The notes under the pieces are model-generated. The model was not told the origin of the DNA, made no database searches, and worked only from the letters and a program-made list of their open reading frames with translations. A stretch of DNA of 64,000 bases from contig JBAZUL010000001.1 in assembly GCA_041661405.1 (NCBI GenBank), positions 28,403-92,402 on the forward strand. The letters run 5' to 3'. This document shows, piece by piece, positions 1 to 54,306 of this stretch. The DNA comes from Patescibacteria group bacterium. Lineage in GTDB: Bacteria > Patescibacteriota > Patescibacteriia > Patescibacteriales > JBAZCA01. Positions within the stretch are counted from its first letter, which is position 1. Each line of letters begins with the position of its first letter. Made by a program: the position numbers and the translations under genes.

Positions 1-358
1 CGTGCTGAGGATCCCGGCCGGTGGCAAAAGCGTTTGGCGCCGTATCGTCAATAATATAGATTTTCGGCACAGGCAATCCGGCGGTGATGCAAAGATTTTC
101 CACAATATGGTAAAGCTCGCGGTTGGAATCGTGATCCACCGGCTTGGCCGAACTCATGGCTAAAACGATTTTGTCGGAAAACCAGTAGCTAATAAACGAA
201 GAAATTACACTAAAACCTACGGCAATATATAAAATTGCCGAGTCATTCATGGCCTGCGAAATTACATAGCCAATAATCATGATAAACACGAAAAACCCGG
301 TTATTAAAAGCCAGGTTTTTCTTTTATTTGAATCAGAATGAGTGTAGAGAGTAGACAT
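1..358 (-). CDS. htpX: Zinc metalloprotease HtpX (M48 family), N-terminal part; gene runs off the left edge
   Basis: Own translation of the minus strand from ATG at 358: MSTLYTHSDSNKRKTWLLITGFFVFIMIIGYV...PKIYIIDDTAPNAFATGRDPQH. It has two N-terminal TM helices and the NAFATGR motif typical of HtpX, and sits next to lemA. Absent from the ORF track because it is truncated. Confidence 0.8.
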   Translation of the reverse strand, partial: MSTLYTHSDSNKRKTWLLITGFFVFIMIIGYVISQAMNDSAILYIAVGFSVISSFISYWFSDKIVLAMSSAKPVDHDSNRELYHIVENLCITAGLPVPKIYIIDDTAPNAFATGRDPQH

Positions 359-428
359 AACACGTAACATGAAACACGCAACACATAATAATAATCTTAT
401 TCTATGTTATGTGTTATGAGTTATGTTA
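357..428. repeat. Heptad-built hairpin (between the lemA stop and the htpX start)
   Basis: Left arm aacacgt aacatga aacacgc aacacat. Right arm tatgtta tgtgtta tgagtta. The arms are imperfectly complementary and each has a 7-nt period. Confidence 0.7.
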
Positions 429-1860: not shown

Positions 1861-3122
1861 TATTTTATCCTTACATTTAATAAAACATTCTTTCCCCTCG
1901 CTTTAGTCGCGTAATAGCCGGTTAACAGCCCTACAGTTTTAAAAACATCGGATTCTTTTTTTATGCTGTCCATTTTTAACTCGGCCAAATTGATTTTTTC
2001 CGGAATTAACGTCTCAATCAAATCATTCTTAATTCGTAATTCGTAATTCGTAATTCTAACGAGCGTCGTCGGTCCGGTTAGCTCATCTAATTTTACCACA
2101 ATATCCCCATTTTTAGCTAGCTTTTCCAGTTTTTCGCTTTCGTCCCGATCCCGACCGACAATAACCATGACCCAATGAAAATTTATATCGGCTTCTATTC
2201 TGACATCTTTCAGATTTTTTCCAATAAGCGATTTTAATGAATTTTTTAAAGACAAGGTAATCTTTGGCGTATTTTGGCGTATTTTCGCGTCCCCGGCCAT
2301 TTCTAATTTCAGCCAAAATACCCGGCCATATTTTAAGAGTTCAACGTCTTCAGTTTTGCAGTCAGGACAATGGGTAATAATGTCCAAAACTTTTTTTCCG
2401 CCTTCCGGATCGGTTAATAAGCAACCTCCGGCGGGCGAAGGGTAATTTTTAATGCCAAATTTTTTGGCTAATTTCATCTGTGCTTCCCTTGACCGCCCTT
2501 TAATATCCAATAACCTTTCCCTCGTAACAAATCCATTTTTTTCCGCGTAAGTTTCCGGAAGAAGTTTTGCTGACAAAGGCCTTAAAACTTCCACTCCGGC
2601 CATTTTCGCGACCTTTTCCAAAGCTTCTTTATTCTGGGAAAACGGCCGCTGGCCGAGCACTTCTCCGGTCGCGATAAAATCGGAAAGTCTTTTATCACTT
2701 AAGTTGTCCGGAAACTTAATTCTCTCCCCCTTGGCAAGGGGGAGTCCGATCGCCGAAGGCGAGCGGGAGGGGGTGTGTTTTCCGGATGGGGGTGAGGTTA
2801 GTTCCGCGGACGCTTTTTTTAGATATTTCCCGGCCTCGCGGATCATCAGACTGTGGCAATCTATGCAAGGATTCATATTTTTTCCATAACCGCAGGACGG
2901 ACATTTTACGATTGACAAAATCTTTTCCGAAATATTTTCTTCAATTAAATCAATGCCGATTATTTTCGCGCTTTCCCGCGCCCGGCCGCAATCAAAAAAA
3001 TTACTGGAAAAACAAATCCCAATAACTTTTATCCCCTGATCCATGAGCACCCGGGCGGCGAGCATTGAATCCAGTCCGCCGGAAAAGAGAACCAGAGCCC
3101 TTACTGCTTTGCTTTTTCCCAT
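1860..3122 (-). CDS. PP-loop ATP pyrophosphatase, ThiI/MnmA-like tRNA thiolation enzyme lacking a THUMP domain
   Basis: N-terminal SGGLDS PP-loop. NPCIDCHSLMIREAG and ATGEVLGQRPFSQ resemble ThiI/MnmA adenylation-domain motifs. GGCLLTDP lies near the C-terminal third. The gene carries two in-frame repeat insertions (see repeats at 2030 and 2722). Confidence 0.65.
   Translation of the reverse strand: MGKSKAVRALVLFSGGLDSMLAARVLMDQGIKVIGICFSSNFFDCGRARESAKIIGIDLIEENISEKILSIVKCPSCGYGKNMNPCIDCHSLMIREAGKYLKKASAELTSPPSGKHTPSRSPSAIGLPLAKGERIKFPDNLSDKRLSDFIATGEVLGQRPFSQNKEALEKVAKMAGVEVLRPLSAKLLPETYAEKNGFVTRERLLDIKGRSREAQMKLAKKFGIKNYPSPAGGCLLTDPEGGKKVLDIITHCPDCKTEDVELLKYGRVFWLKLEMAGDAKIRQNTPKITLSLKNSLKSLIGKNLKDVRIEADINFHWVMVIVGRDRDESEKLEKLAKNGDIVVKLDELTGPTTLVRITNYELRIKNDLIETLIPEKINLAELKMDSIKKESDVFKTVGLLTGYYATKARGKNVLLNVRIK
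2030..2057. repeat. In-frame heptanucleotide tandem array (TAATTCG x3 + TAATTCT) inside the PP-loop ATPase gene
   Basis: The plus strand reads taattcg taattcg taattcg taattct. It encodes RITNYELRIKN on the minus strand. Confidence 0.85.
2722..2800 (+). repeat. GC palindrome + GGGGTGAGG element (type 3), in-frame inside the PP-loop ATPase gene
   Basis: CTCCCCCTTggcAAGGGGGAG, then TCGCCgaaGGCGA, then GGATGGGGGTGAGGTT. Translated on the minus strand as ELTSPPSGKHTPSRSPSAIGLPLAKGE. Confidence 0.7.
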
Positions 3123-4771: not shown

Positions 4772-7700
4772 CTATCTCCTAGCTACCCCCAGCCAAACCT
4801 CCGCCCCCTCCACCTTAACATTTTTCTCCGCCAGCGCGCCTTCAATTTTTCCTTCGGCCAGACTGTCGGCTAGAGTATCTTTCAATATTCCGTCCTTATA
4901 ATTTTCAATCGCTTTTTTCACTTCTTCGCCGGATGTTTCATAATAAATTTCAATCCGGTCTTTAATTGTCAGTCCGGCATCTTTCCGAAGGCCGTTAACT
5001 AGCCGGACGATCTCGCGCTTAACACCCTCGGCTTTCAGCTCAGGGGTTATTTCCGTGTCTAATTCAACTTCCATATTGCCTTTATCATCTTTAAATACAA
5101 CTTCTTTCACATTCACTTCGTCTTTAACTAGCTCCAAAAATTCATGATCAATTGATAATTTATAATTAATAATTAATAATTGATTTAATGGTTGTCTTAC
5201 TTTTATCCCGGCCTCGTCTCTTTTTGCCAGCGCCAACTCTACGATATTTCTTACATCTTCCATCTTGGCGATTATTTGACTATCAACTCTCCCCGCCTCC
5301 GGCCAGCCTTCCAGATGCACGGATTTTTCTTCATCCTTAAAATCATTGCCGGTTACTTTCTGCCAAATTTGCTCGGCAATGAACGGCGTAAACGGCGCCA
5401 TAACTTTTGATAACTGCAATAACGCGAATCGCGTCGTATTGAGAGCCGCTTCTTTGTCTTTTTCATCATCAGCTTTAAACCGGTCTCTTGATCTTCTTAT
5501 ATACCAGGTTGATAGGTCATCAACAAAATCGGCAATCGGCCGGGTCGCTTGCGGCAAGTTATAATTTTCCATAGCCTTGGTAACTTCTTTTATAAGCTCA
5601 TTCAGCCTCGCCAATATCCATTGATCAAGAATATTTTTTTCCCTCTCCTTACTAATGAGAGGGTCGGGGTGAGGTTTGGAGGCAGAAGAGGCAAACATTT
5701 CGTAAAACTTATAGACATTCCAGACCAACATGTTTATTTTTCTAAGCGAATCCGCGACTCCTTTTTCAAAAAAATTAAGGTTTTCGGCGAGCATTACCGG
5801 CGAAGTTAAGAGATAATAGCGCAAAGCGTCAGCCCCGTATTTTTCAAAAATCAAAGTCGGATCCGGATAATTCTGGAGCCGTTTGGACATTTTTTTCCCG
5901 TCCTCGGCAAGCACGATTCCGTTGACAATAACATTTTTAAAAGCCGGTTTTTCTTTTATCGCCGTAGCAATGATGTGGAGGTAATAAAACCAGGCGCGGG
6001 TCTGATCAACGCCTTCGGCAATGAACTGGGCCGGAAAATTCTTTTCAAATTTTTTTTTATTCTCAAAAGGATAATGCTCCTGCGCGTAAGGCATGGACCC
6101 GGAATCAAACCAGGTATCTAAAACATCCGGAATCCTTTTCATTGTTCCTTTGCATTTTTCGCAGGAGAAAGTTATCTCATCAACAATATGCTTATGAATA
6201 TCAGTAATTTTCTGCCCGCTTAACTCTTCCAGTTCTTTAACCGAACCGATAACCTTTAGCTCTTCGCATTTTTCGCATTTCCAAATCGGAATAACCGAGG
6301 CCCAAAATCTTTGGCGGGATATAGACCAGTCGCGGGCGCCGGAAAGCCAATTGCCAAACCGGCCTTCCTTAATATGACCGGGCGACCAATTAATCTCTTC
6401 CGCCAGTTTCAAAGCCTTATCTTTGATGGCCAAAACTTTTACGAACCAGGAAGTGGTAGCGTAATTAATGAGCGGCGTTTCACAGCGCCAGCAATGCGGG
6501 TAGCTATGCTCAAATTTTTCTTTACTGAATAATAAATTTTTCTTCGCGAGGTATTTTATAATCTCCACGTCTGTCGCTAGAACATCATCTTTTGGCTTAA
6601 CATTCATGCCGGAAAAATCACCGGCTTCATCCTTAATACTGCCATCCATCCGAACGTGCTGGATAAAGGGCAGATTAAATTTTTTTCCAAGGTTGCGGTC
6701 GTCTTCGCCAAAAGCCGGAGCGATGTGGACGACTCCGGTTCCGTCTTCAGTCGTAACAAAATCGCCCGGATAAATTTTCCAGCCGTTCTCCCGATTTTCC
6801 AATTTTTCATTTTCAGCGTAATAGGGAAAAAGCGGTTTGTATTTTTTACCGACCAGTTCTTTTCCTTTAATATTATCCTCTATACTCCAGAAACGAGCAT
6901 CGGGTTTATTTGTTTGATTTTTAAATCGGTAACCATGCTCCGTTTTTTCCAATGAATCTTTTGAGGTTATAAAAAGACTGTTTTTCTCCTTGGCATAAAA
7001 ATCATCATTTCCTTCACTTTCAGTAAATTCGGCTTCAGGCTGAACTCTAATTTTTACATACTCAATATCCTCCCCTACCGCCAAAGCCGCGTTGCCGATT
7101 AAAGTCCAAGGTGTCGTTGTCCAGGCTAAGACATAAGTTCCTGGTTCGTCTTCCAATTCAAATTTTACTGTCGCCGTCAAATCTTTAATCATCTTATAGC
7201 CCTCGGCCACTTCCTGCTGGGAAAGCGTGGTCTCGCATCTCGGACAAATATGCATAGAGCGGTAATCTTCGTAAACCAATCCCCTGTCCCACAGTTCCTT
7301 AAAAACCGACCAAACCGACTCCATGAACGGAAGATCCATGGTTTTATAAGAATTCTCCATGTCCGCCCAGCGCCCTAAGCGCGGTATTACTTTTTTCCAC
7401 TCATCAACATAAGCCAAAACCTTGGAACGGCATTTTTCGTTAAACGCGGCCACGCCCATTTCCTCAATATCCTTCTTGCTCTTAGAGCCCATTTCCTTTT
7501 CAACGATGTTTTCAATCGGCAGGCCATGGCAATCCCAGCCCCATTTCCGCTCCACCCTAAAACCCCGCATTGTCCAAAAACGAGGAACAGCGTCTTTCAT
7601 AACCGAAGCGACAATATGGCCGTAATGCGGAGTACCGGTCGCGAACGGCGGGCCATCGTAAAAAACATAATCGCCTTTGGGTTTTTCACCAGCCGGTTTT

Positions 7701-7963: not shown

Positions 7964-8040
7964 GAACAGACGTCCTAAGCCGCATACACTTATATTATAC
8001 AGGTATTGTTATAACTTGTTGAACCCGCTGAACAAAAATC

Positions 8041-9230: not shown

Positions 9231-9231
9231 G

Positions 9232-10058: not shown

Positions 10059-10062
10059 AGGC

Positions 10063-10551
10063 TTATTTCGCGGCCAGGATGCTTCCGATATAAGCAGTGA
10101 TCGCGTAGGCGCCGAGAATAATAATCAGGCCGATCATGGCGTCGTTAAACATCTGCTGAGCTTTTTTAACTTCTTCGGCATTGCCCCGGGCCATCATCCA
10201 CATGAATCCGGCGTAAATCATGAGCCCGAGAAATATTATACCCAGGAAAGATAAGCCAATCCCGACGAAATATCCCGCCCGCTGGTATAAGTCAACTGTT
10301 CCCGGCTCAGCGCCGTAACCTTCTTTAAAAGTTTCTAACAACCCGGCCGTTGTCTTTCCAGTGAGTCCGGTGGTAGGTGGAGCAGTAGTCTCGGCCAAAA
10401 CCGCCGAAACCTGAAAAATGAAAAAAAATAAAAAAACCGCGAGAGGGATTAATGCCTGGCGAAAATTAAAGAATGATTTCATAAACAATATTCGCTCTGA
10501 ATATTTATAGTCCGTTACTGCCTTAAACACCACTGATAAAGTCATGTCCAA
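10063..10551 (-). CDS. TrbC/VirB2-like small membrane protein, paralog 4 of 6
   Basis: Loop AGFMWMMARGNAEEVKKAQQMFNDAMIGLIIIL. The likely true start is the Met at 10482 (MKSFFNFRQALIPLAVFLFFF signal peptide). Confidence 0.75.
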   Translation of the reverse strand: MDMTLSVVFKAVTDYKYSERILFMKSFFNFRQALIPLAVFLFFFIFQVSAVLAETTAPPTTGLTGKTTAGLLETFKEGYGAEPGTVDLYQRAGYFVGIGLSFLGIIFLGLMIYAGFMWMMARGNAEEVKKAQQMFNDAMIGLIIILGAYAITAYIGSILAAK

Positions 10552-10611
10552 AGCAATGGGCCCGTCCGCCTCTGGTTGGAAATCATTATAGACAGGCCCG
10601 AAAATTTTATA

Positions 10612-11007
10612 TTATACTGCGGGTGTTCCGCCGGTTGCCTCAAAAACCGTTTTTATCAGGAACTGGGTGATGCCGAAAGCGGCGAGTATTATTACCAAAC
10701 CGACAGCGCCGGCCTGAATAAGTTTTCTCGCTTCCGTGATTTTATCGTCATTTCCCTGCGCGGTCATCCATTTAAAACCGCCGATGAGGATGATAATCAC
10801 GGCAATCAGGCCGAGGAACCCTAAGATAACCCTGATTACGTTTACGATGATGCTTTTCGGGTCTTCATTGCCCAAGCCGATATTACTGGCGTCGTTTAAT
10901 CCGAGGTCATTAGTCGTAAGCGCCTGAGCGTTAACGGTTACGGCAATGGACAAAAGCGGAACAATAACCAGCATAGCCATCATCAGTTGAATAAGTTTTT
11001 TCTTCAT
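10612..11007 (-). CDS. TrbC/VirB2-like small membrane protein, paralog 5 of 6
   Basis: Signal peptide and loop GGFKWMTAQGNDDKITEARKLIQAGAVGLVIIL. Most similar to paralog 6. Confidence 0.75.
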   Translation of the reverse strand: MKKKLIQLMMAMLVIVPLLSIAVTVNAQALTTNDLGLNDASNIGLGNEDPKSIIVNVIRVILGFLGLIAVIIILIGGFKWMTAQGNDDKITEARKLIQAGAVGLVIILAAFGITQFLIKTVFEATGGTPAV

Positions 11008-11071
11008 AATTCACCCCCTCTCCTTTCTAAAGAGAAAAATTACAGTCTCTTTTATTAATAGTAAAAACAAA

Positions 11072-11461
11072 CTAATCGTTGACAACGTTGTTTTGGATAG
11101 TGGTAATGAGGAAATTGGTGATGGCAAAAGCCGCTAAAACAATTAAAAGTCCGATCGCTCCGTTGACTATATACTTCCTGCCCTGAGTCACCTTATCATC
11201 ATTCCCGCCGGCCGTCATCCAGATAAATCCGCCGATCAGGATGATAATCACGGCGACGATAGCCAGGAAGCTTAAAGCTACCTGGATAATGTTAACCACG
11301 ACATTTTTCGGATTGGCGTTCTGTAAGCCGATATTGTTGGCAAAGTTAAGGCCAAAACTGCCAAGATTATCCTGCGCTAAAACTGCCGTAGACGGCAGAA
11401 GAACAGCCGCTAAAAGAAGCGCCGCCGCCGTTAATTTAATTTTCTTTGTCCAGTTGTCCAT
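11072..11461 (-). CDS. TrbC/VirB2-like small membrane protein, paralog 6 of 6
   Basis: Signal peptide and loop GGFIWMTAGGNDDKVTQGRKYIVNGAIGLLIVL. First gene of the minus-strand array. Confidence 0.75.
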   Translation of the reverse strand: MDNWTKKIKLTAAALLLAAVLLPSTAVLAQDNLGSFGLNFANNIGLQNANPKNVVVNIIQVALSFLAIVAVIIILIGGFIWMTAGGNDDKVTQGRKYIVNGAIGLLIVLAAFAITNFLITTIQNNVVND

Positions 11462-11570: not shown

Positions 11571-11651
11571 ATGTATTATGTATACAGCATTATGTATATC
11601 TTCTATCGCAACGGCAAACACGCGTAATGCATAATACTTTATACAAAATAC
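11571..11651. repeat. Heptad-built hairpin in the leader of the 11679 gene
   Basis: atgtatt atgtata cagcatt atgtata ... acgcgta atgcata atacttt atacaaa atacaaa. The arms are imperfectly complementary. Confidence 0.65.
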
Positions 11652-11678
11652 AAAAAACCCAAATTCAAAAATACATCC

Positions 11679-26378: not shown

Positions 26379-27623
26379 TTAGATTGAAGGAATCGGGAAC
26401 GCAAGGCACATGTCGCGCACTTCTTTTTTTATCTGCTCAAGCACTTCGGACTCATCACGGTGCTCAATCGCGGCGTTAATCCAGGTAACAATTTTTTTGA
26501 TTTCTTCTTCTTTCATACCCCGGGTAGTTATGGCCGGAGTGCCGAAACGGACGCCGGACGGATTGGCCGGCGGATTGGGATCGTTAGGAATGGTTGAGCG
26601 GCTGGACGAAATCCCTACTTTATCCAGGATTATTTCCGTATCCTTACCTCTCAGATCTTTTGAAGTCATATCAACGACCATGAGATGGTTGTCGGTTCCG
26701 TCGGATACAATGCGATAACCCAGTTTTTTCAATTCCTCGGCCATGAGCTTGGCGTTCTTTATCACTTGCGCCGCGTATTCCTTAAACTCCGGCTGGAGCG
26801 CTTCGCCGTAAGCGACGGCTTTGGCGGCTTGGATGTGGTCGTGCGGCCCGCCCTGCATGCCCGGGAATACCGCCCGATCCACCTGCTTGGCGAATTGCTC
26901 TTTGCACATGATCATGGCGCCGCGCGGCCCGCGAAGTGTCTTATGGGTAGTAGTCGTAACAACGTCAAACAAAGGCACCGGATTGTTCATTAACCCGGCG
27001 GCAATCAGTCCGGCTGTATGGGCGATATCGGCGAAAGTAAACGCCCCGACTTCATCGGCGATTTCTTTGAATTTTTGCCAGTCAATTTCCCGGCTATAGG
27101 CGCTGTAGCCGGCGACAATCATTTTCGGTTTTTCTCTTAAAGCCACTTCCCGGACTTTTTCCATGTCTAATTTCCCGACTTCCGGGTCAAGCTCATATTG
27201 GACAAAATTGTAAAGCATGCCGGAAAAATTTACCGGGTGGCCGTGTGAAAGGTGGCCGCCGTGATCCAGGCGCAAACCGAGCACTTTATCACCCGGTTTT
27301 AAAAAAGCGAAGTAAACCGCCGCGTTGGCCGGAGAACCGGAAAGAGGCTGGACGTTAACATGCTCGGCATTAAATAATTTTTTCGCCCGATCAATAGCGA
27401 TGTCGTCCACTTCGTCAATGTTCTGATTACCGCCGTAATAGCGGTGTCCGCCATAGCCTTCGGAATATTTATTGGTCAGAACCGTGGCCATGGCTTCCAT
27501 AACCGCTTTTGACGCGTAATTTTCCGAAGCAATAAGCTCCATTTCTTCCGACTGCCGCTTCATTTCCTTTTTTACCGCGTTCATGATCGCGGGGTCGCTT
27601 TGGGCTAAATTTGGGTAGTCCAT
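26379..27623 (-). CDS. glyA: Serine hydroxymethyltransferase
   Basis: 414 aa. ELIASENY and VTTTTHKTLRGPRG (PLP lysine motif). Confidence 0.97.
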   Translation of the reverse strand: MDYPNLAQSDPAIMNAVKKEMKRQSEEMELIASENYASKAVMEAMATVLTNKYSEGYGGHRYYGGNQNIDEVDDIAIDRAKKLFNAEHVNVQPLSGSPANAAVYFAFLKPGDKVLGLRLDHGGHLSHGHPVNFSGMLYNFVQYELDPEVGKLDMEKVREVALREKPKMIVAGYSAYSREIDWQKFKEIADEVGAFTFADIAHTAGLIAAGLMNNPVPLFDVVTTTTHKTLRGPRGAMIMCKEQFAKQVDRAVFPGMQGGPHDHIQAAKAVAYGEALQPEFKEYAAQVIKNAKLMAEELKKLGYRIVSDGTDNHLMVVDMTSKDLRGKDTEIILDKVGISSSRSTIPNDPNPPANPSGVRFGTPAITTRGMKEEEIKKIVTWINAAIEHRDESEVLEQIKKEVRDMCLAFPIPSI

Positions 27624-27630
27624 ATAACAA

Positions 27631-27700
27631 ATAACAGACGACAGATAACAGAAAGCAGAAAATATCGCCGATTATCTGCTGTCTATTAGCTGTTATCTAA
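27631..27700. repeat. Heptad-built hairpin in the glyA 5' leader
   Basis: ataacag acgacag ataacag aaagcag (loop aaaatatcgccgat) tatctgc tgtctat tagctgt tatctaa. The arms are ~80 percent complementary by eye. Confidence 0.75.
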
Positions 27701-27718: not shown

Positions 27719-27747
27719 ATCCTAAGCCAATCACGGCCATTTGTCAA
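27719..27747 (-). promoter_or_regulatory. Predicted promoter of glyA
   Basis: The minus strand reads TTGACA - 17 nt - TAGGAT. Confidence 0.55.
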
Positions 27748-27806
27748 AATGATTTGCGTGCGAGCAAATCATCCCGTAGCCGAAGGCGTGCGGGAACTCT
27801 CGCACA
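27742..27806 (+). repeat. Promoter-associated structured repeat, type 1, copy R2
   Basis: TGTCAAAATGATTTGCGTGCGAGCAAATCATCCCGTAGCCgaaGGCGTGCGGGAACTCTCGCACA. The left terminus is the -35 of the glyA promoter. Confidence 0.7.
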
Positions 27807-27872
27807 ATAAGACTATTCCGCCATCAGAACTCACGGCAATTCCAGTGAGTAAGGAACAAAAATTTTTGTTCC

Positions 27873-28494: not shown

Positions 28495-29874
28495 TCACAT
28501 TTTTCCCAAAAACCTCTTCTTCCTTAAAAGCCGGTGATAGCCAATGGCAAAGCGGTGCGCTTCGTCGCGGACCCGCTTGATTAAATGCAGAGCCGGCGAC
28601 GCGAGCGGCAGTTCCAGGGGCATTTTTTCTCCGGCGAAAAACAGCTTGTCCGGCGCGATAGCTGATCTTAAACCTTCACCCTTTGAAATGGCAATCACCG
28701 GAATATCCAGCTTATGTTTTTTTAATATTCTTACCGCCACGTTCAACTGTGCCTTGCCGCCGTCAATAATAACGAGATCCGGCAATGGCCAGCGTTCCTT
28801 CGCGGCGTTGTCGCTTAAATCAGCGGCTGACCTTCTGAATCTCCTTACCAAAATTTCTTCCAGCATTTTTATGTCCCCGCCTTTGGCTTTTAATCCGCTA
28901 AACCGCGTTTCATCGGCTTTAATCTTAAACTTCCGGTATTCGTTCCGATCCGGTTCGCCGCCGGAAAATACCACCATTGACCCGACCGCCTCTTTGCCGA
29001 AAATATTAGAAATATCATAACCCTCAATCCGTTCCGGACGCTTAGGCAGGCTAAGAATTTTAGCCAGCTCCACGACATCATTGGCGTATTTTTCCCCAAT
29101 ACTTAAAACTCCGGACATATCAAGCACGCGCTCAATATTTTCCAGCCGGAATTTTAAGAGATTTAATTTGTTTTCCAGGCCGATCCTTACCGCGCCCTCG
29201 TCAGTCGCCAATGAAGCTTTATCCATGGATTTAATTTCTCTTTCCAGATTCCTGATTTCTAATTTCAAATTCCTGACAATGTCTTTTTTCTTTCCCTCCA
29301 AAAACTTTATTGCCTGTTTGATATAATCAAGATAATCTTTGCGGGATATTTTTTCTTCGCACATCCCGGCGCATTTGCCGACGTGATAATAGAGGCAGGC
29401 GCGTTTAGGCAAATTAAAGCAGGACCGGTAAGGCCAGATCCGGCGGATAATTTTCAGGGTCTCGCGCACCGCCAGTCCCGATGTGAACGGCCCGAAATAC
29501 CGGCCGGACTTATCAAGCGTCCGGGTGGAATAAATCCGCGGCCATTCCTCTTCAACGGAAACCTTGATATAGAGAAACCTTTTGTCGTCGCGCGACAGGA
29601 TATTGTATTTGGGCTGGTATTTTTTTATCAGGTTGGCTTCAAGTAAAAACGCCTCTACTTCGCTATCAACTATAATCCATTTTACGGTGGCGATTTCCAA
29701 AACCATCCGCTCTTTGGCCGGGCCGAGCGCCGAACCTTTTTGCCAATAGGAAAGCACGCGGGATTTCAGGTTAACTGCTTTGCCCACGTAAATTATTTTT
29801 CCGCCCGCGTCAAAAAATTCATAACAACCGGGAGTTTCGGGGATATTCAGGTTTTTTGCCTGTTTAAGGGTCAT
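28495..29874 (-). CDS. uvrC: Excinuclease ABC subunit C, short form lacking the C-terminal (HhH)2 domain
   Basis: 459 aa. N-terminal GIY-YIG (GCYEFFDAGGKIIYVGKAVNLKSRV). The protein ends at DEAHRFAIGYHRLLRKKR, where full-length UvrC continues into the HhH domain. Confidence 0.9.
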   Translation of the reverse strand: MTLKQAKNLNIPETPGCYEFFDAGGKIIYVGKAVNLKSRVLSYWQKGSALGPAKERMVLEIATVKWIIVDSEVEAFLLEANLIKKYQPKYNILSRDDKRFLYIKVSVEEEWPRIYSTRTLDKSGRYFGPFTSGLAVRETLKIIRRIWPYRSCFNLPKRACLYYHVGKCAGMCEEKISRKDYLDYIKQAIKFLEGKKKDIVRNLKLEIRNLEREIKSMDKASLATDEGAVRIGLENKLNLLKFRLENIERVLDMSGVLSIGEKYANDVVELAKILSLPKRPERIEGYDISNIFGKEAVGSMVVFSGGEPDRNEYRKFKIKADETRFSGLKAKGGDIKMLEEILVRRFRRSAADLSDNAAKERWPLPDLVIIDGGKAQLNVAVRILKKHKLDIPVIAISKGEGLRSAIAPDKLFFAGEKMPLELPLASPALHLIKRVRDEAHRFAIGYHRLLRKKRFLGKM

Positions 29875-29954
29875 AAATAACCAAATTAATAAATTTAATG
29901 ATTAAAAATTTATTAAAAATTGTAAATTGAAAATTATTCTACCATTTTTCCAAT

Positions 29955-30234: not shown

Positions 30235-30263
30235 ATTCTCTTATAAAAAACAGGTTAAGTCAA
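30235..30263 (-). promoter_or_regulatory. Predicted promoter of the ferredoxin gene
   Basis: The minus strand reads TTGACT - 17 nt - GAGAAT. Confidence 0.5.
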
Positions 30264-30321
30264 ACTGATTCGCGCGCAAGTAAATCATCCTGAGCCAAAA
30301 AACAAAGGATCTGCTTTGACA
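30259..30321 (+). repeat. Degenerate type 1 repeat with both termini (GTCAAA ... TTTGACA)
   Basis: GTCAAACTGATTCGCGCGCAAGTAAATCATCCTGAGCC...GGATCTGCTTTGACA. The termini coincide with the -35 boxes of the divergent ferredoxin and proS promoters. Confidence 0.55.
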
Positions 30322-30344
30322 ATTCGCGTTTTTTCCAATAACAT
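30316..30344 (+). promoter_or_regulatory. Predicted promoter of proS-proC-proA
   Basis: TTGACA - 17 nt - TAACAT, with TAGGAT immediately after as an alternative -10. Confidence 0.5.
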
Positions 30345-34857: not shown

Positions 34858-34917
34858 ACATTTAAGGCGCCCGTTTTAAGACGCCAGAAGCTATTTTTGT
34901 GGGTTTAAGAGGGCTCG

Positions 34918-34976
34918 CCCCGCACGCCTATCCCGCCCCGGCGGGACGGGATGCCTCGCTCACACGCTCGGTAAAC
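34918..34976 (-). repeat. Promoter-associated structured repeat, type 1, copy in reverse orientation (no promoter seen)
   Basis: The minus strand reads TTTACCGAGCGTGTGAGCGAGGCATCCCG-hairpin-..GCGTGCGGGG, matching the left arm of copies at 7892, 37838 and 40132. Confidence 0.6.
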
Positions 34977-34990
34977 CATGCGGACAATTG

Positions 34991-35059
34991 TGGGCGGCAT
35001 AGGATTCGAACCTATTACCTCGTCGATGTCAATCCCGAGGACTCGGGACTCTAACCAAC
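34991..35059 (-). pseudogene. tRNA-Val-like fragment X, 3' portion (T arm and acceptor 3' strand)
   Basis: The minus strand reads GTTGGTTAGAGTCCCGAGTCCTCGGGATTGACATCGACGAGGTAATAGGTTCGAATCCTATGCCGCCCA. The acceptor 3' strand is complementary to GGGCGGC at 36405-36411. No canonical anticodon stem can be drawn. Confidence 0.55.
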
Positions 35060-35129
35060 GTTTACGCATCATCTGAAGTTTTCATCCCGCTTAGTAAGAT
35101 GAATTTAATTATTCGTCCTCGATAACAAA

Positions 35130-36260: not shown

Positions 36261-36261
36261 G

Positions 36262-36335
36262 TGGGTTTAAGAGGGCTCGAACCTCTGACCTCCACGATGT
36301 CAACGTGGCGCTCTAACCAACTGAGCTATAAACCC
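36262..36335 (-). tRNA. tRNA-Val (anticodon GAC)
   Basis: Manual cloverleaf: GGGTTTA TA GCTC AGTTGGTTA GAGC G CCACG TTGACAT CGTGG AGGTC AGAGG TTCGAGC CCTCT TAAACCC A. 74 nt, no encoded CCA. Confidence 0.9.
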
Positions 36336-36355
36336 AAAAAAATATTTAATTTATT

Positions 36356-36411
36356 CCTCCACGATGTCAATCCCGAGGACTCGGGACTCTAACCAACTGA
36401 GCTAGCCGCCC
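36356..36411 (-). pseudogene. tRNA-Val-like fragment X, 5' portion with a palindrome in place of the anticodon-stem 5' strand
   Basis: GGGCGGC TA GCTC AGTTGGTTA GAG then the palindrome TCCCGAGTCCTCGGGA, then TTGACATCGTGGAGG. It shares a 36-nt repeat (36362-36397) with 35024-35059. Confidence 0.55.
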
Positions 36412-36432
36412 AATACGATTATAAACTCAATG

Positions 36433-36506: not shown

Positions 36507-36520
36507 AATGTTTTATCTTT

Positions 36521-36583
36521 CTTTTTTCAGAGGCGTGCTCCCTGCCTGCCGGCAGGCAGGTAACCAGCTGAGCTATGGGCGCC
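36521..36583 (-). pseudogene. Partial duplicate of the tRNA-Ile 5' half interrupted by a 20-nt perfect palindrome
   Basis: GCGCCCATAGCTCAGCTGGTTA + CCTGCCTGCCGGCAGGCAGG + GAGCACGCCTCTGAAAAAAG. It has no T arm and no acceptor 3' strand. Confidence 0.6.
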
Positions 36584-36635
36584 ATATATCAAATCCACCT
36601 CCACAAACGAACTTATATTCAGGTTAACACTAATA

Positions 36636-37781
36636 TTATACCTTTTCAAGAATAACTTTCAATTTCTCTTCCAGCATCCCGATTATCCGCTTTTCGCCGT
36701 CAGCAAAGGGCTCGTTCAAATCAAACTTGACGAGAGTTTTTCCTCCGGCCGGATTGTATTCCGCCGCGAGTTCCATGGAATTAAGGTTCCTGGCGGCGTG
36801 CAAAAAGACCCGGGTTTTTCCTTCTTCATTCTCAAAAATCAGGGCAATGACTTTTGCGGCCGGAACGTTCGTTATCATCTCTTCTATCACTTCTTCAAGG
36901 TCGGCTTCAACCGATCCGGTTTTTAAAAAATCGCTTTGCCCGAGAACTGACCAGATAAGCCGGTCGTTTAACGAACTTTCCAGGCGGGCGAGCACCCGGC
37001 CCCAAAGTTTTAACACGTTAAAAGAACGGGAGCGGAAAAGCTGGTTAATAATTTCGTCCTTCCGGGCGCCGGAAGCTATCAGGTCCGAAGCCGTTTCCAG
37101 CACCCGCGGAGTGATGGTTCTGGATCTAAAATTCCTTGTGCCCGAAATTATGCCTGCCAAAAGGCAAGTGGCGATATCCTCGTCCATGAGACCCTCGCCG
37201 AGCGTTTTAAAAAACGGAAAAAGAATTTCCGCGAGCGAAACCGCCGTGAGCTCTATTAAGTTAACCTGGCCGAAACTCTCGTTGTCCGGGCCGTTATCAA
37301 TATTTATGAGCGGGGTCTTATAAAAAAAGTCCGGGTTGTTCTCAAAAATCCGTCCAAGCGATTCAAGATCCGGAGCGCCGACCGCGACAACGAGGTCATA
37401 CTTATATCCGCAGGCGCAGGAAGTAACTTCCCGGCCGGTAAAAACTCCTTCTTTGGGGGTGATGATAAAATCCAGCCGTCCGTCTTCAATTACGTATTTA
37501 ACCTGATCAACTTTGGTTTGGGAAATATCAAGCGATACGATTAAATTCTGCAAACCCTCAACCGCTTCTTTAATTTCCATAAAACCGGGCAAAAAACTCA
37601 GGTCTTTTCTGCCGACGGCACCCTCTATAATCAGGTCCGCGCTTTTGCCCATCTTTTTTAAATACAAAAAAAGAGCCAGGGCGTTAGCCGGAGCGTCTTT
37701 ATTATCATCCCGCGGGGCGACAATGAGAATATTTTCGGATTTTTTAATCTGTTCTTCGGCTTGCTTTCTTTCTGATAACAT
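36636..37781 (-). CDS. DHH/DHHA1 family (NrnA-like) protein with degenerate catalytic motifs
   Basis: 381 aa with an NrnA-like layout. The position expected for DHH reads DNG (LINIDNGPDNESFG), and motif I reads APRDDNKDAPANALAL. Confidence 0.6.
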   Translation of the reverse strand: MLSERKQAEEQIKKSENILIVAPRDDNKDAPANALALFLYLKKMGKSADLIIEGAVGRKDLSFLPGFMEIKEAVEGLQNLIVSLDISQTKVDQVKYVIEDGRLDFIITPKEGVFTGREVTSCACGYKYDLVVAVGAPDLESLGRIFENNPDFFYKTPLINIDNGPDNESFGQVNLIELTAVSLAEILFPFFKTLGEGLMDEDIATCLLAGIISGTRNFRSRTITPRVLETASDLIASGARKDEIINQLFRSRSFNVLKLWGRVLARLESSLNDRLIWSVLGQSDFLKTGSVEADLEEVIEEMITNVPAAKVIALIFENEEGKTRVFLHAARNLNSMELAAEYNPAGGKTLVKFDLNEPFADGEKRIIGMLEEKLKVILEKV

Positions 37782-37814: not shown

Positions 37815-37843
37815 AATATATACAAAAACCGACTGACTGTCAA
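37815..37843 (-). promoter_or_regulatory. Predicted promoter of the DHH-like gene
   Basis: The minus strand reads TTGACA - 17 nt - TATATT. Confidence 0.6.
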
Positions 37844-37900
37844 ACGCCGAGCGTGTGAGCAAGGCGTCCCGCAGCCAAAGGCATGCGGGATCTCTGCGCA
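37838..37900 (+). repeat. Promoter-associated structured repeat, type 1, copy R4
   Basis: TGTCAAACGCCGAGCGTGTGAGCAAGGCGTCCCGCAGCCaaaGGCATGCGGGATCTCTGCGCA. The left terminus is the -35 of the promoter for the 36636..37781 gene. Confidence 0.7.
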
Positions 37901-37919
37901 AATATTGAACTTACGACTT

Positions 37920-40108: not shown

Positions 40109-40137
40109 ATTATATCATGCTAATCTAAGCATGTAAA
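40109..40137 (-). promoter_or_regulatory. Predicted promoter of the RNHCP-uvrB unit
   Basis: The minus strand reads TTTACA - 17 nt - TATAAT. Confidence 0.6.
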
Positions 40138-40185
40138 TGCCGAGCGTGCGAGCGAGGCATCCCGCCGGCGAAGCTGGCGGGATCT
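40132..40185 (+). repeat. Promoter-associated structured repeat, type 1, copy R5
   Basis: TGTAAATGCCGAGCGTGCGAGCGAGGCATCCCGCCggcgaagctGGCGGGATCT. The left terminus is the -35 (TTTACA) of the RNHCP gene promoter. The right end lies 6 nt before tRNA-Val(CAC). Confidence 0.7.
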
Positions 40186-40191
40186 AACATA

Positions 40192-41995: not shown

Positions 41996-42005
41996 GCGAG
42001 AAGTG

Positions 42006-42090
42006 GGTGAAAGTTCACGTTTAAGTAGTTCTTTTTTAATTCGCCCGACACTAAAGGGCCACTCGCAAATACCAGCGAGAAACGTGAATT
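42006..42090. repeat. 17-bp inverted repeat GGTGAAAGTTCACGTTT / AAACGTGAATTTTCACC
   Basis: One mismatch. The arms enclose ~50 nt immediately after the secreted-protein gene. Confidence 0.6.
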
Positions 42091-42095
42091 TTCAC

Positions 42096-42136
42096 CCCGA
42101 CAAGAAAACCAATTTCTTCTCGGGGTTTTCTTTTGT
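42096..42136 (+). terminator. Terminator after the secreted-protein gene
   Basis: CCCCGACAAGAAA-acca-ATTTCTTCTCGGGG followed by TTTTCTTTTG. Confidence 0.7.
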
Positions 42137-42244
42137 CTGAACCACTGATTCTCACTGATTTACCTGATTACATGGATAGCATTTAGTTTGTTTATTTTAA
42201 ATCAGTGAAATCATCATAATCACGTGAAAATCAGTGGTTCAGAC
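42135..42244. repeat. Nested inverted repeat (GTCTGAACCACTGATT ... AATCAGTGGTTCAGAC)
   Basis: Perfect 16-bp outer arms. Inner arms are CTCACTGATTT / AAATCAGTGAAA. The element is about 110 nt. Confidence 0.7.
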
Positions 42245-42281
42245 AATCTCAGCGAAATCAACAGCTCAGACAATAAATAAA

Positions 42282-42310
42282 TTGACTTTTGCCTTTGTAA
42301 AGGTTAATAT
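42282..42310 (+). promoter_or_regulatory. Predicted promoter of the HEPN-MNT operon (leaderless transcript likely)
   Basis: TTGACT - 17 nt - TAATAT. The -10 ends 6 nt before the ATG at 42317, and no Shine-Dalgarno sequence is possible. Confidence 0.6.
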
Positions 42311-42316
42311 TTAAAC

Positions 42317-43309: not shown

Positions 43310-44899
43310 TTAAGCGAACTTCTTCTCCATATACGTCCCTCTGAGCCTGTATCCAAACTTCCGGTAATAACCCCGCGCCCCGACTCCGGAAATAATCATC
43401 ATTTTTTTAAAACCATTCTGCCGGGCGATTTTCTCCGCTTCGGCGAGTAGCATCTTCCCGAGACCCGAATGTTGAACCCGGCCGGCCGCTCCGACCGGCG
43501 CCAGCTCGCCGTAAACGTGCAATTCGCGGATAATGGCGGCCACGCCCGATAGCCTCAGCCGGCAAAACCCGTAAATAATTTTCCCAGCCTGTGCCGAGCT
43601 TGCCGAGACAGAATCCACGCTTATAAAATACTCATCTCCTCCCGATGCCTTATAATTTAAAATTCTTAATTCATAATTCTTAATTTTTAATTCTTTTGGC
43701 TCCCGGCATCTTATGCAATCGCACTTCACGCCAAGGTCTTTCATTACCTGGCGCAAATTAGTTATCTTATTGCCGGCCATGATGGACTCGCCCGGAATGT
43801 CGCGGATTAATCTTATTATCCGAACATAAGGCGGAACAGCTTTTTTACAGTCAATTATCAATTGCTTTAAAACTTTATCGCTGTACGTCTTATATTTTCC
43901 GGCTTTCCACCATCTAAAAAGCAAACTGCCGCGCGTGACCACGGTCGGATAAAATTTAATCTGATCCGGCTGGAATCGTTCGTCTGAAAAGAGCTTTTTA
44001 AACATAGCTAAATCCTTTTTGGCCGTTGCCCCGGGCAGTCCGGGCATGAGATGGTAAGTTACTTTAAAACCGAAATCTTTTAATAGCTTTGTCGCCTTAA
44101 CAGTTTCCGCGACCCCGTGTCCGCGTTTATTTATTTTCAGGATTTTATCGTCAATCGCCTGAACGCCTAATTCCACGCGGGTGCAACCGAGTTCCCGCAT
44201 CTCGCGCAATTCTTTTTCATCAATATAATCAGGCCGGGTTTCAAGGGTTAACCCGATAATCTTATATTTAGCCTTTTCGTTTTTCTTTTGCTCGCCTTGC
44301 AACTGACGACTAAGAACGGAAATTTTTAACTTAGCATTGTATTTCTGTTTTTTGTTGTCTGTTTTCTGTTGTCTAAAATTGTTCGCCGCCCGAAAACACT
44401 CCTTAATATACCAATATTTATACGCCGTTGGTAGAACGCTCCATGTTCCGCCAATCACGATAATTTCTATCTTTTCCGGCTCATGCCCGTTGGCTTCAAG
44501 GGCGCTAAGCCTCAGCTGGACTTGCAAATACGGATTATAATTACAGCGGATAGCCCGCATCACCGCCGGTTCGTTGGATAAATAACTCTGCGGCACGTCC
44601 TTTTCCGTCGGGCAGTAAACGCATTTTCCCGGGCACGCGTAAGGCATGGTAAGAACCGCGACCGGCGCGATACCGGACATGGTTCTTATTTCCCGCTTGC
44701 GGAGTATCCGCCTTAAAATGGCGCTACTAGAACCTGACCCTTTTAACTCTCTTAAAATATCCGAATTTTTAAAAATCGGCAAACCGTATTTTTTTGCGAT
44801 TTTTCTCTTAGCCGCCATCAGCTCCGAGGCTGTTGTTATCGGCGATTTTATCAATTCATTCACAGCTTCCTGAAAATCGTTTTTTATTGAATTTTTCAT
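43310..44899 (-). CDS. elp3: Elp3-type radical SAM / GNAT tRNA uridine(34) acetyltransferase
   Basis: 529 aa. Radical SAM cluster motif CPGKCVYCP and a C-terminal GNAT region (LHVYG...HSGLGKMLLAEAEKIARQNGFKKMMIISGVGARGYYRKFGY). Carries an in-frame heptad-repeat insertion. Confidence 0.85.
   Translation of the reverse strand: MKNSIKNDFQEAVNELIKSPITTASELMAAKRKIAKKYGLPIFKNSDILRELKGSGSSSAILRRILRKREIRTMSGIAPVAVLTMPYACPGKCVYCPTEKDVPQSYLSNEPAVMRAIRCNYNPYLQVQLRLSALEANGHEPEKIEIIVIGGTWSVLPTAYKYWYIKECFRAANNFRQQKTDNKKQKYNAKLKISVLSRQLQGEQKKNEKAKYKIIGLTLETRPDYIDEKELREMRELGCTRVELGVQAIDDKILKINKRGHGVAETVKATKLLKDFGFKVTYHLMPGLPGATAKKDLAMFKKLFSDERFQPDQIKFYPTVVTRGSLLFRWWKAGKYKTYSDKVLKQLIIDCKKAVPPYVRIIRLIRDIPGESIMAGNKITNLRQVMKDLGVKCDCIRCREPKELKIKNYELRILNYKASGGDEYFISVDSVSASSAQAGKIIYGFCRLRLSGVAAIIRELHVYGELAPVGAAGRVQHSGLGKMLLAEAEKIARQNGFKKMMIISGVGARGYYRKFGYRLRGTYMEKKFA
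43661..43695. repeat. In-frame heptad array (AATTCTT AATTCAT AATTCTT AATTTTT AATTCTT) inside elp3
   Basis: Five 7-nt units. They encode KELKIKNYELRILNYK on the minus strand. Confidence 0.8.
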
Positions 44900-51032: not shown

Positions 51033-51108
51033 TTATGAAGAATTATGAATCAAGAATTATGAATTACGGGTTGTGATTCCCTTGATTCATTATTCATAAT
51101 TCATTATT
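51033..51108. repeat. Heptad-built hairpin between the ymdB stop and the HU start
   Basis: aattatg aatcaag aattatg aattacg (loop) tgattca ttattca taattca ttattca. Confidence 0.7.
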
Positions 51109-51910
51109 CAATTTGAATAATCTCGTTTATCCTTTTTATACTTTTTGCTTTGCCGGTCTTTTCGTCTATCCCGACAACCGCTCCGCTTAAAATGGCTTTT
51201 CCTTTTTCCGGAATCACATGGCTTCTTTTTATCTGGTCAAGATAGGTTTTTAAGATATCTTCCTTTTCCACTCCGAGCGACCCCCCGCTAAAACCGGTCA
51301 TGCCGACGTCGGTCAGGTAGGCGGTCCCGGCCGAGGTGATTTCTTCGTCCGCGGTTTGGATATGGGTATGGGTGCCGAGAAGGGCGCTGGCTTTTCCGTC
51401 AACGTAATATTTCATCGCCACCTTTTCCGAAGTGGTCTCGGCATGCATATCAATAATAATAGCAGATAACTTTTTTGTCCGCAAGCTAGCATTAGCAAAA
51501 ATCCCGTCAATTTCCCGGAAAGGGCAGTCAAAATCTTTTTTCATGAAAACCCGGCCGATCAGGCTGATAAGAAGCACCCTGAATTTACCTTTTTCAATAA
51601 TCGCGCAGCCCCGGCCCGGCGCCAAAGGCGGCCAGTTAGCCGGACGGAGAATCGGAAGACTGCCGGCGTAGACTTCTTCAATACCCTTTAACCGGTCAAA
51701 AGCATGGTCGCCTCCGGTAAAATAATCAACGCCGGCGGCATTAAGCTCTTCCAGGGTTTTTTTTGAAACGCCTTTGCCGTGGGCGACATTATCGGCGTTG
51801 GCGATTACAATATCGGCTTTATATCGCTTTTTTATTTTCGGCAACAAAATCTTTACAGCTTCGCGGCCGATTTTCCCGCTTATGTCGCCGATAAAAAGTA
51901 TGTTTAACAT
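51104..51910 (-). CDS. ymdB: YmdB-like metallophosphoesterase (2',3'-cyclic-nucleotide phosphodiesterase family)
   Basis: 268 aa. LFIGDISGKIGREAV, NADNVAHGKG, GGDH and HAETTSEK motifs. Located downstream of rny as in Firmicutes. Confidence 0.85.
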   Translation of the reverse strand: MLNILFIGDISGKIGREAVKILLPKIKKRYKADIVIANADNVAHGKGVSKKTLEELNAAGVDYFTGGDHAFDRLKGIEEVYAGSLPILRPANWPPLAPGRGCAIIEKGKFRVLLISLIGRVFMKKDFDCPFREIDGIFANASLRTKKLSAIIIDMHAETTSEKVAMKYYVDGKASALLGTHTHIQTADEEITSAGTAYLTDVGMTGFSGGSLGVEKEDILKTYLDQIKRSHVIPEKGKAILSGAVVGIDEKTGKAKSIKRINEIIQIE

Positions 51911-54123: not shown

Positions 54124-54194
54124 GGTGAGCAAATTATCCCGAATCCCGCATTTGCGGGGGAAAAATCTCTCGCTCGCGCGCTCGGCGTTTGACT
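54124..54194 (+). repeat. Type 1 repeat copy R7 carrying the opposite terminus
   Basis: GGTGAGCAAATTATCCCGAATCCCGCAtttGCGGGGGAAAAATCTCTCGCTCGCGCGCTCGGCGTTTGACT. The right terminus is the -35 of the infB promoter. Confidence 0.65.
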
Positions 54195-54217
54195 TACCCC
54201 TGAATTTCCCGTAAACT
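54189..54217 (+). promoter_or_regulatory. Predicted promoter of infB
   Basis: TTGACT - 17 nt - TAAACT. Confidence 0.55.
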
Positions 54218-54230: not shown

Positions 54231-54306
54231 CTAGCGAACAGCGTATAGCTTTTAGCGTTTAGCATTTTGACTAGCTTTATTCTGAATGCTGAACGCTAAA
54301 CCCTAA
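54231..54306. repeat. Heptad-built hairpin in the infB 5' leader
   Basis: tagcgaa cagcgta tagcttt tagcgtt tagcatt (loop) tctgaat gctgaac gctaaac. Confidence 0.75.

Follow-up and report, generated by a model that had tools for sequence, protein, structure and literature searches.

Locus-specific heptanucleotide repeats form predicted hairpins in front of start codons in a member of the Patescibacteria and its relatives

In a 64-kb stretch of DNA (hereafter the window) from an uncultured member of the Patescibacteria (candidate phyla radiation, CPR), we found five intergenic hairpins of which both arms are built from tandem 7-nt units (Table 1). These hairpins are highly non-random and represent a palindromic variant of the 7-base microsatellites known from bacteria. 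We propose that they are palindromic heptanucleotide microsatellites generated by slippage, which would occlude the translation initiation region and perhaps act as coupling or RNase III elements; taken as a whole, we give this proposal about an even chance of being correct. An initial annotation of the window had listed the five hairpins, and all of them are present at the positions and with the heptad units that it named. Its gene names glyA, infB and uvrC were likewise borne out by our own annotation, which also confirmed the genes for HU, a YmdB-like phosphoesterase and RNase Y.

Comparing each arm with itself at lags 3-11, lag 7 gave the highest or joint-highest self-match in 10/10 arms (0.52-0.81 versus 0.04-0.59). 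The weakest arm is 27669-27700, in which lag 7 tied with lag 11 (both 0.52). When folded as RNA, the five hairpins reached z-scores of -2.2 to -5.5 over both strands, as calculated from the minimum free energy (MFE) versus dinucleotide shuffles. The glyA hairpin, whose arms have lag-7 self-matches of 0.77 and 0.52, consists on the mRNA strand of a 5' arm of RTAACAG-like units (27700-27669) and a 3' arm reading CTGCTTT CTGTTAT CTGTCGT CTGTTAT TTGTTAT, with an MFE of -27.5 kcal/mol (z -5.5) on this strand versus -19.0 on the opposite one. The infB hairpin has the 5' arm TAGCGAA CAGCGTA TAGCTTT TAGCGTT TAGCATT and the 3' arm GAATGCT GAACGCT AAACCCT (lag 7: 0.73 and 0.81), and here the MFE is -26.7 (z -5.3) on the mRNA strand versus -20.5 on the other.

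The HU hairpin occupies the whole 75-nt spacer between the YmdB-like gene and the HU gene. Its 5' arm, (ATGAATW)n, copies the HU start ATGAATA and includes the stop codon of the YmdB-like gene (51104-51106), while the 3' arm is (WATTCAT)n. Similarly, the 357 hairpin fills the spacer from the stop codon of a LemA/MamQ-like ORF (431) to an ATG at 357 that, as read from the sequence, opens an ORF running off the window. The fifth element, the 11571 array, has lag-7 self-matches of 0.57 and 0.71 in its arms. A weaker example that had been suggested for the uvrC leader (29880-29940) was not supported: the self-match is 0.50 for lag 7 and 0.47 for lag 8, and the z-score of its fold is only -0.96. 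The Rfam covariance models at gathering score matched no family other than tRNA in the window (7 tRNAs).

We then removed low-complexity sequence and scanned the DNA for tandem arrays, requiring at least 17 matches in 21 comparisons. In the whole window, 10 period-7 arrays were found versus 0.03 in block shuffles, and the intergenic DNA of the window contained 7 versus 0.02 (200 shuffles); the other periods from 4 to 13 yielded 0-1 arrays in both cases. Period 7 is therefore commoner than in shuffled intergenic sequence, contrary to a possibility that the initial annotation had raised against its own proposal. The arrays share two features of heptanucleotide microsatellites: at least three head-to-tail 7-nt units, seen in the period-7 rows of Tandem Repeats Finder (TRF) and in the lag-7 matches, and an excess both over chance and over other unit lengths.

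The serine hydroxymethyltransferase of the window is 72-83% identical to homologues from metagenome-assembled genomes (MAGs) of Parcubacteria and Falkowbacteria, and the 564-aa protein encoded by the ORF at 11679 is identical to a protein of the NCBI MAG 'Patescibacteria group bacterium'. Exact-protein look-ups for the HU and glyA products gave no match. Relatives were reached via IF2 and the 564-aa protein. After removal of duplicates, the loci of related Patescibacteria amounted to 810 kb; a further 229 kb came from more distant organisms, Fibrobacter among them. The related loci contained 80 period-7 arrays (9.9 per 100 kb), compared to 1-9 arrays for each other period from 4 to 13 (0.1-1.1 per 100 kb), and the more distant, non-CPR loci contained 8. 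Of the 98 arrays of the window and its relatives, ORFs contain 49 and intergenic DNA contains 46. We searched within 130 nt of each array for an inverted partner of at least 17/21 bases, which accompanied 25/46 intergenic arrays versus 1/49 ORF arrays and 1/300 random pieces. The whole lineage is characterised by period-7 arrays, in leaders and beyond them, and their pairing into hairpins is a feature of spacers. A unit structure of four constant and three variable positions was not supported, as the least-conserved phases were adjacent in 23/54 arrays versus 18 expected (P = 0.098).

Five single-orientation period-7 arrays lie in ORFs of the window, either beyond the Pfam domain hits or at their margins. 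Like other heptad arrays in the ORFs of housekeeping enzymes, they encode peptides with a periodicity of seven residues, such as RITNYELRIKN. The class I tRNA-synthetase that carries one of them is presumably the isoleucyl enzyme (IleRS), and in species B and C (defined below) class I tRNA-synthetase ORFs contain perfect (TCTGTCG)x4-5 arrays, which share their CTGT content with the glyA arms. The UvrC array sits in a poorly conserved stretch beyond the conserved N-terminal part, and an AATTAAG/AATTACG array is found at the same place in uvrC of species C. The idea that ORF arrays are lineage-specific insertions was rejected for uvrC, where the array replaces a stretch whose length in relatives differs by a few residues only. 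Within ORFs, arrays would survive in one, stop-free orientation only, and inverted pairs would build up in spacers.

According to the initial annotation, hairpins behind a predictable promoter close shortly before the start codon. In the window, 5/5 hairpins end 0-27 nt upstream of a start codon. Under uniform placement of 70-nt elements in all spacers that can accommodate them, 19% are expected to end no more than 27 nt in front of a start; with a threshold chosen post hoc, the probability is about 2.7e-4 for all five hairpins and 1.8e-3 for the three that lie in long spacers. Over all 59 ORF starts of the window, no Shine-Dalgarno signal was detected: Shine-Dalgarno-like 4-mers precede 8/59 genes versus 5/59 in a control window. 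G is strongly depleted between -7 and -1, and T occupies position -1 in 36/59 genes. With no Shine-Dalgarno signal and a stable stem at the start codon, the stem should therefore occlude the initiation region.

In the relatives, hairpins are found between co-directional genes; most stems begin no more than about 25 nt after the upstream stop codon, and most extend to the following start or close to it. The stem base of intercistronic hairpins begins 0-15 nt past the upstream stop. In several cases the final repeat unit (GTTATG) includes the start codon, which then pairs as part of the stem base, for instance in front of folD in L081 and of HU in L164 (z -5.2). Heptad hairpins occur in the glyA-folD spacer of many relatives, and the folD hairpin of L081 forms a predicted 30-bp uninterrupted stem with two G-U pairs (-50 kcal/mol, z -11.8). 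The glyA-folD spacer of the window is without a hairpin.

Clear, conserved promoters could be predicted for glyA and infB only. At these two genes the stems begin about 16 nt (glyA) and 22-27 nt (infB) from the predicted transcription start site (TSS), not within about 10-15 nt as had been proposed. The infB heptads themselves start about 8 nt past the expected TSS. The best promoter on the + strand at 11571 is TTGCAA-18-TATTAT, of which the -10 box (TATTAT, 11574-11579) lies within the 5' arm of the array. For the HU and 357 hairpins the promoter scan revealed no convincing promoter upstream. Both promoter-driven leaders, glyA and infB, fold better on the mRNA strand.

The position of glyA and infB shortly behind conserved promoters, together with the RNase Y gene encoded next door, would fit a role as 5'-terminal stem-loops that shield mRNA from 5'-end-dependent decay, as the initial annotation had suggested. 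In the ompA, ermC and aprE leaders, however, protective stem-loops lie within a few nucleotides of the 5' end, compared to predicted single-stranded tails of 16-27 nt here. In addition, two of the hairpins are intercistronic, one overlaps a predicted -10 box, relatives with the same promoters are without the hairpin, and the homologous hairpins of L017 and L097 are found at the 3' end of a gene. We therefore regard this role as improbable.

A different, GC-rich element of about 65 nt is dispersed in the window. It reads GTCAAA(A/C)GCCGAGCGTGYGAGCRAGGCATCCCGC-loop-GCGGGATCTC, and its 22-nt core gave 6 hits versus 0.01 expected. On the opposite strand its end is TTTGAC, from which four predicted promoters take their -35 box (TTGACA or TTGACT), namely those of a class I tRNA-synthetase gene (4772-7837), of glyA, of infB and of a gene at 36636-37781. 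This element looks like a portable module of hairpin plus promoter.

We compared orthologous spacers between close species. Species A is the window, to which L167 (JGI sample 3300014208) is identical across the infB leader region, hairpin included. Species B comprises L161, L162, L163 and L168 (IF2 97% identical, four-fold sites 17.4% diverged) and species C comprises L081, L164 and L169 (IF2 92% identical), of which L081 equals L169 at the folD hairpin. L165 served as a fourth species for the infB leader. The source samples are JGI 3300014208 (species A and C), 3300027373 (species B) and 3300037810 (species C). From one of these species to the next, heptad hairpins have appeared, vanished or been exchanged in orthologous spacers, whereas genes and promoters stay; the promoters of glyA and infB are conserved in relatives, and the leaders behind them are replaced wholesale. 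The infB leader is 101 nt long with the heptad hairpin in species A, 65 nt with a short non-heptad hairpin in species B, 56 nt in species C and 29 nt in L165, all behind the same promoter. Similarly, the glyA leader is 95 nt with the expanded hairpin in species A and 82 nt in species C, where a short GCGGATAAT...GTTATCTGC stem is present (z -1.0). In front of the 11679 gene, species C shares the conserved 5' array, and species B has kept the TTGCAA but no array.

At the HU gene, species B carries the same hairpin as species A with two differences, while species C has a heptad hairpin of another unit (RTAACGC / GCGTTAY) in a 109-nt spacer, the L164 example given above. The differences between A and B amount to 2/75 positions, neither of them in the stem (P = 8.6e-5 at the 17.4% rate of four-fold sites). 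Both same-species copy pairs from separate contigs were identical (two pairs only). The spacer between two tRNA genes is 21 nt in species A, and in species B (L161) it is 47 nt longer and holds an AATTNNN hairpin. The window spacer contains AATTGCCA, which looks like a short palindromic seed of that expanded hairpin. The glyA stem of L081 also looks like an unexpanded palindromic seed, in this case of the window hairpin.

These observations support a generative process based on heptads, one of the mechanisms that the initial annotation had put forward: arrays are spread over the lineage, those in ORFs come without a hairpin, orthologous sites turn over, and two seed-like states are found. Changes of length in multiples of 7, for which the initial annotation had suggested a comparison of relatives, were not seen at the divergences available, as judged from the infB and glyA leader lengths given above. 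The clade is prone to making tandem 7-nt arrays, and we suggest that a short seed at the site, in many cases a small palindrome close to a start codon, would expand in 7-nt steps via slipped-strand mispairing. Units would be copied from arm to arm through template switching inside the quasi-palindrome, and whole hairpins would later be lost through deletion. The expected outcome is an architecture that recurs at the same sites with a changing sequence.

If transcribed, such a spacer would fold into an imperfect stem-loop of 20-30 bp that abuts or contains the start codon. In the intercistronic case, a terminating ribosome could open the stem and free the downstream start, which would amount to translational coupling. 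In the promoter-proximal leaders of glyA and infB, and likewise in stems that are long and near-perfect, the start would most likely be released through cleavage of the double-stranded stem by RNase III, by analogy with the hmw leader discussed below. The number of units would tune the strength of the stem.

Several results weigh against this proposal. Both transcription and folding of the hairpins are predicted, and pooled over 20 independent hairpins the G-U pairs (38 versus 29 in our own tally) did not significantly favour the sense strand; 13 hairpins fold better in sense and 6 in antisense. There is thus no general signature at the RNA level. The scarcity of hairpins in ORFs has a trivial explanation, because one orientation of an AT-rich heptad yields in-frame stop codons. 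The 11571 array overlaps the predicted -10 box and may therefore act on DNA, if it acts at all, and the homologous hairpin pair of L017 and L097, with 5-6 G-U pairs on the sense strand only, lies at the 3' end of a gene ahead of the next promoter. Individual hairpins are dispensable, since the infB leader is without one in species C and L165, as is the folD leader of the window. No excess of indels in multiples of 7 nt was found among species A, B and C. Finally, the approximately 35 nt of coding sequence on either side of the HU hairpin also show zero differences between A and B, so that recent recombination could explain the low divergence as an alternative to selection.

A purely neutral origin is a strong rival. 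The hairpins would then be a by-product of heptad slippage and of a mutational bias that forms palindromes, and they would persist where they are harmless, in spacers and in ORF stretches outside domain hits. The wholesale gain, loss and replacement between close species, the absence of hairpins at orthologous sites, the lack of a pooled strand asymmetry of G-U pairs and the similar units in ORF arrays all agree with this. So does the heptamer excess that is widespread in bacteria (PMC4692102) and that we also saw in the 8 arrays of the non-CPR loci. It accounts less well for the placement close to starts within long spacers and for the very low divergence of the HU hairpin compared to four-fold sites. 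Moreover, the HU site again holds a heptad hairpin, of a different unit, in species C, and stems over the start codons of the housekeeping genes glyA, infB, HU and folD should be costly if they had no purpose. On balance we consider a neutral origin possible, yet not probable.

The heptad sequences had been described as unrelated between loci. Units do differ, but the 357 and glyA hairpins share a GTTAY/RTAAC core, for which the pattern GTTAYNNGTTAY gave 4 window hits versus 0.23 expected. Members of this core are the 357 hairpin (RTGTTAY), the glyA hairpin (YTGTTAT), the HU hairpin of species C (GSGTTAY) and the folD leaders of relatives (NNGTTAY). The HU hairpin, ORF arrays and the tRNA-spacer hairpin of species B all have units containing AATT, and units containing ACAG/CTGT are common to the glyA leader arms and ORF arrays.

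Such shared cores could be read every 7 nt by S1, a cold-shock protein or a DNA-binding factor. Protein binding to a short repeated core has been proposed for the TAACTGA repeats of Beggiatoaceae (PMC4679880), from which ATAACAG is one base off when these are written in another register, (ATAACTG)n, and which share the position at start codons without Shine-Dalgarno sites. However, the cores vary by locus (TAGC, ATGT, AATT, GTTA, ACAG), the split of the unit into constant and variable parts lacks statistical support, pairing of the arms would hide single-stranded sites, and no candidate protein was identified. A single factor that reads a 7-nt register, as put forward initially, is unsupported, since the units differ between loci, and we consider protein-binding arrays quite improbable.

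The presence or absence of whole blocks between species, and the fact that these blocks are intergenic palindromes, could also point to mobile palindromes of the repetitive extragenic palindromic (REP) or miniature inverted-repeat (MITE) type, or to intrinsic terminators. REPs are present in many copies of one sequence that are mobilised by a RAYT transposase. REP/BIME elements and REPINs resemble the present hairpins in being short extragenic palindromes located in intergenic spacers. In contrast, our inverted-repeat and pattern scans of the 64 kb found no hairpin sequence at a second window locus, and the only dispersed family is the GC-rich element. The mobile-element reading was rejected, as no two loci of the 64 kb share a hairpin sequence. 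The terminator reading was rejected as well: our scan detected no G+C-rich stem with a T run at 5/5 hairpins, the stems of which are AT-rich, whereas canonical G+C-rich stems with T runs do occur elsewhere in the window. Both readings are very improbable.

We compared the hairpins with known heptanucleotide repeats. Heptamer simple sequence repeats (SSRs) are over-represented in bacteria, for which polymerase slippage is given as a proposed cause in PMC4692102, citing Mrazek 2007. According to the same source, the excess of bacterial 7-nt microsatellites had been noted since 2007 and, as of 2015, never examined in detail. Heptanucleotide microsatellites of the cyanobacterial STRR-like type resemble our arrays in their tandem 7-nt units, their intergenic enrichment, the outstanding period 7 and the proposed origin by slippage; they differ in being long and mostly uniform, with few units genome-wide, and in not forming hairpins at start codons. 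The GGGAATC arrays of Xanthomonas and GGGGAYT arrays of Nostoc (PMC4692102) are likewise intergenic and vary in length and sequence at the same sites between close species, and some of the Xanthomonas arrays are inverted and could form stem-loops. Those arrays, however, are G-rich, quadruplex-forming and of one unit type per genome, whereas ours are AT-rich and locus-specific and follow a rule of inverted pairing.

The closest positional analogue are the TAACTGA repeats, found in marine Beggiatoaceae, some Cyanobacteria and Bacteroidetes as 2-6 units that mostly lie in front of a start codon. Sets ending 1 nt before the start make up the largest single category, and Shine-Dalgarno sites are rare in the intergenic regions that contain the repeats (PMC4679880). 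Here too, the arrays end near a start without a Shine-Dalgarno site (0-27 nt). In both systems some repeats extend into the end of the preceding ORF, others are found within ORFs, there in the stop-free orientation, and the units are related, (ATAACTG)n versus ATAACAG / RTAACNN. In contrast to the one fixed genome-wide unit of that system, with 169 direct sets, one inverted set and no predicted hairpin, units vary here, the related RTAACNN core occurs in two window hairpins only, and spacer arrays are mostly inverted pairs (25/46).

The closest functional analogue is the hmw leader of Haemophilus influenzae, where a heptamer-repeat hairpin in the 5'-UTR of hmw1A is cut by RNase III and controls expression (PMC12721329). 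In hmw1A/hmw2A, as in our promoter-driven leaders, a heptanucleotide SSR is located between promoter and start codon and forms an arm of a long imperfect hairpin, which our predicted stems resemble (z -2.2 to -5.5). The hmw repeat is transcribed, its repeat number tunes expression and it is a substrate of RNase III, whereas here transcription and cleavage are predictions. The hmw system furthermore has one unit, ATCTTTC, in at least 11 copies on one arm, which pairs with a non-repeat G-rich stretch, and it represents a single virulence locus with demonstrated phase variation. In the window, both arms are repeats of 3-5 locus-specific units in front of housekeeping genes. The present hairpins differ from the known systems in that units are specific to the locus and inverted pairs prevail in spacers. 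They also differ in their host clade, since our literature search turned up no report of heptad hairpins in Patescibacteria.

In hmw, changes of repeat number require transcription and folding of the hairpin (PMC12721329). A more far-reaching version of our proposal would be a dedicated, transcription- or structure-dependent process that grows palindromic 7-nt arrays in transcribed but untranslated spacers, with the stems as the main form of post-transcriptional control in a genome without a detectable Shine-Dalgarno signal, acting as RNase III sites and stop-coupled gates. We consider this version unlikely.

Table 1. Positions of heptad hairpins, arrays, predicted promoters and other features; window coordinates unless a contig is named.
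Feature	Position	Strand	Remarks
glyA leader hairpin	27624..27700	-	last stem base at -1 of the ATG (27623)
infB leader hairpin	54231..54306	+	stops 12 nt short of the ATG at 54319
HU hairpin	51033..51112	-	intercistronic, YmdB-like gene to HU gene (ATG 51028); z -5.1
357 hairpin	356..428	-	intercistronic; units RTGTTAY / RTAACAY; z -2.4 to -2.8
11571 array	11571..11654	+	(ATGTATW)n, weaker inverted arm; upstream of the 564-aa ORF, finishing 27 nt before its ATG at 11679; z -3.0
Predicted glyA promoter	27719..27747	-	TTGACA-17-TAGGAT; kept in relative L081; expected TSS about 27712
Predicted infB promoter	54189..54217	+	TTGACT-17-TAAACT; kept in four species, the leader behind it not
ThiI-like ORF array	2021..2061	-	AATTACG x4.6; encodes RITNYELRIKN; no inverted partner
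Class I tRNA-synthetase ORF array	5148..5186	-	AATTAAT-like; between anticodon-binding and C-terminal domain hits; Pfam tRNA-synt_1
uvrC ORF array	29242..29271	-	AATYWGR; near residues 201-210
ELP3-like ORF array 1	43660..43696	-	AATTAAG-like x5; between radical-SAM C-terminal and GNAT hits
ELP3-like ORF array 2	44342..44374	-	GACAACA / GAAAACA; ACAG/CTGT-containing unit resembles glyA leader arms
ORF arrays in L168	1561-1601, 2557-2599, 16511-16553, 17090-17128		
ORF arrays in L169	538-577, 3637-3672, 3764-3794, 4819-4858, 5622-5667, 15041-15072		
glyA	26379-27623	-	
infB	54319-56283	+	
uvrC	28495-29874	-	
HU gene	50744-51028	-	
RNase Y gene	52039-53553		next to the YmdB-like gene
GC-rich ~65-nt element	7885-7965, 27735-27815, 34946-34967, 37835-37910, 40125-40190, 54062-54200		two copies in 54062-54200
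GC-rich element, weaker relatives	8205-8270, 30250-30325, 59770-59900		

Other repeats and spacers of the window were observed besides the heptad hairpins. The leader of an NYN-domain gene (59132) contains at 59053-59105 a tandem repeat of 9-10 nt, CATTCGCGG CATTCGCATG CATTCGCG CATTGG, and not of period 7. Species B lacks the entire 53-nt block in which it lies, and species C and L165 are without most of the repeat. RNase Y and the YmdB-like gene are separated by 128 nt in the window (51911-52038) versus 5 nt in species B, and the window spacer holds a period-8/15 array (AAAGTTAT...) with what appears by eye to be a 9-bp hairpin. The 321-nt spacer 41996-42316 contains the inverted repeats 42005-42022/42080-42097 (94% complementary) and 42133-42155/42224-42246 (96% complementary, 68 nt apart), with no Rfam match.

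Furthermore, tRNA-like sequences are present at 34890-35060, 36350-36425 and 36520-36590, which were called by neither ARAGORN nor Rfam. They seem to be broken by a short GC-rich palindrome (TCCCGAGGACTCGGGA or CCTGCCTGCCGGCAGGCAGG), and one 5' fragment duplicates the start of the tRNA-Val gene (36261-36335). These sequences could represent decayed copies or else tRNA genes that carry inserts. A run of six small paralogous genes in tandem, oriented divergently from the 11679 gene, is located at 8817-11461 (7081-9857 in L168; 6729-9638 in L169). The products of the relatives' run match Pfam T4SS_pilin, and one window product matches the Mbov_0395 pilin-like conjugal transfer family.

For genome annotation, the heptad arrays matter because gene callers push ORFs into units that bear an ATG: with our simple longest-ORF calls, the starts of several downstream genes fell inside the hairpins. 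Likewise, arrays within ORFs give odd peptides of the kind shown in Table 1. More generally, the lineage offers a dense and diverse set of young arrays, with seed and expanded states at orthologous sites, from which the generating mechanism could be read, namely the step size of slippage, the copying of palindromes and the dependence on transcription. Should a dedicated process after all grow these arrays, the hairpins would be a self-assembling and fast-evolving regulatory class instead of passive microsatellites, and RNase III sites would create mRNAs with short leaders. If the hairpins act as RNA, they would provide small genomes that do not use Shine-Dalgarno sites with a simple and evolvable gating of translation, and maybe with a means of cutting polycistronic mRNAs.

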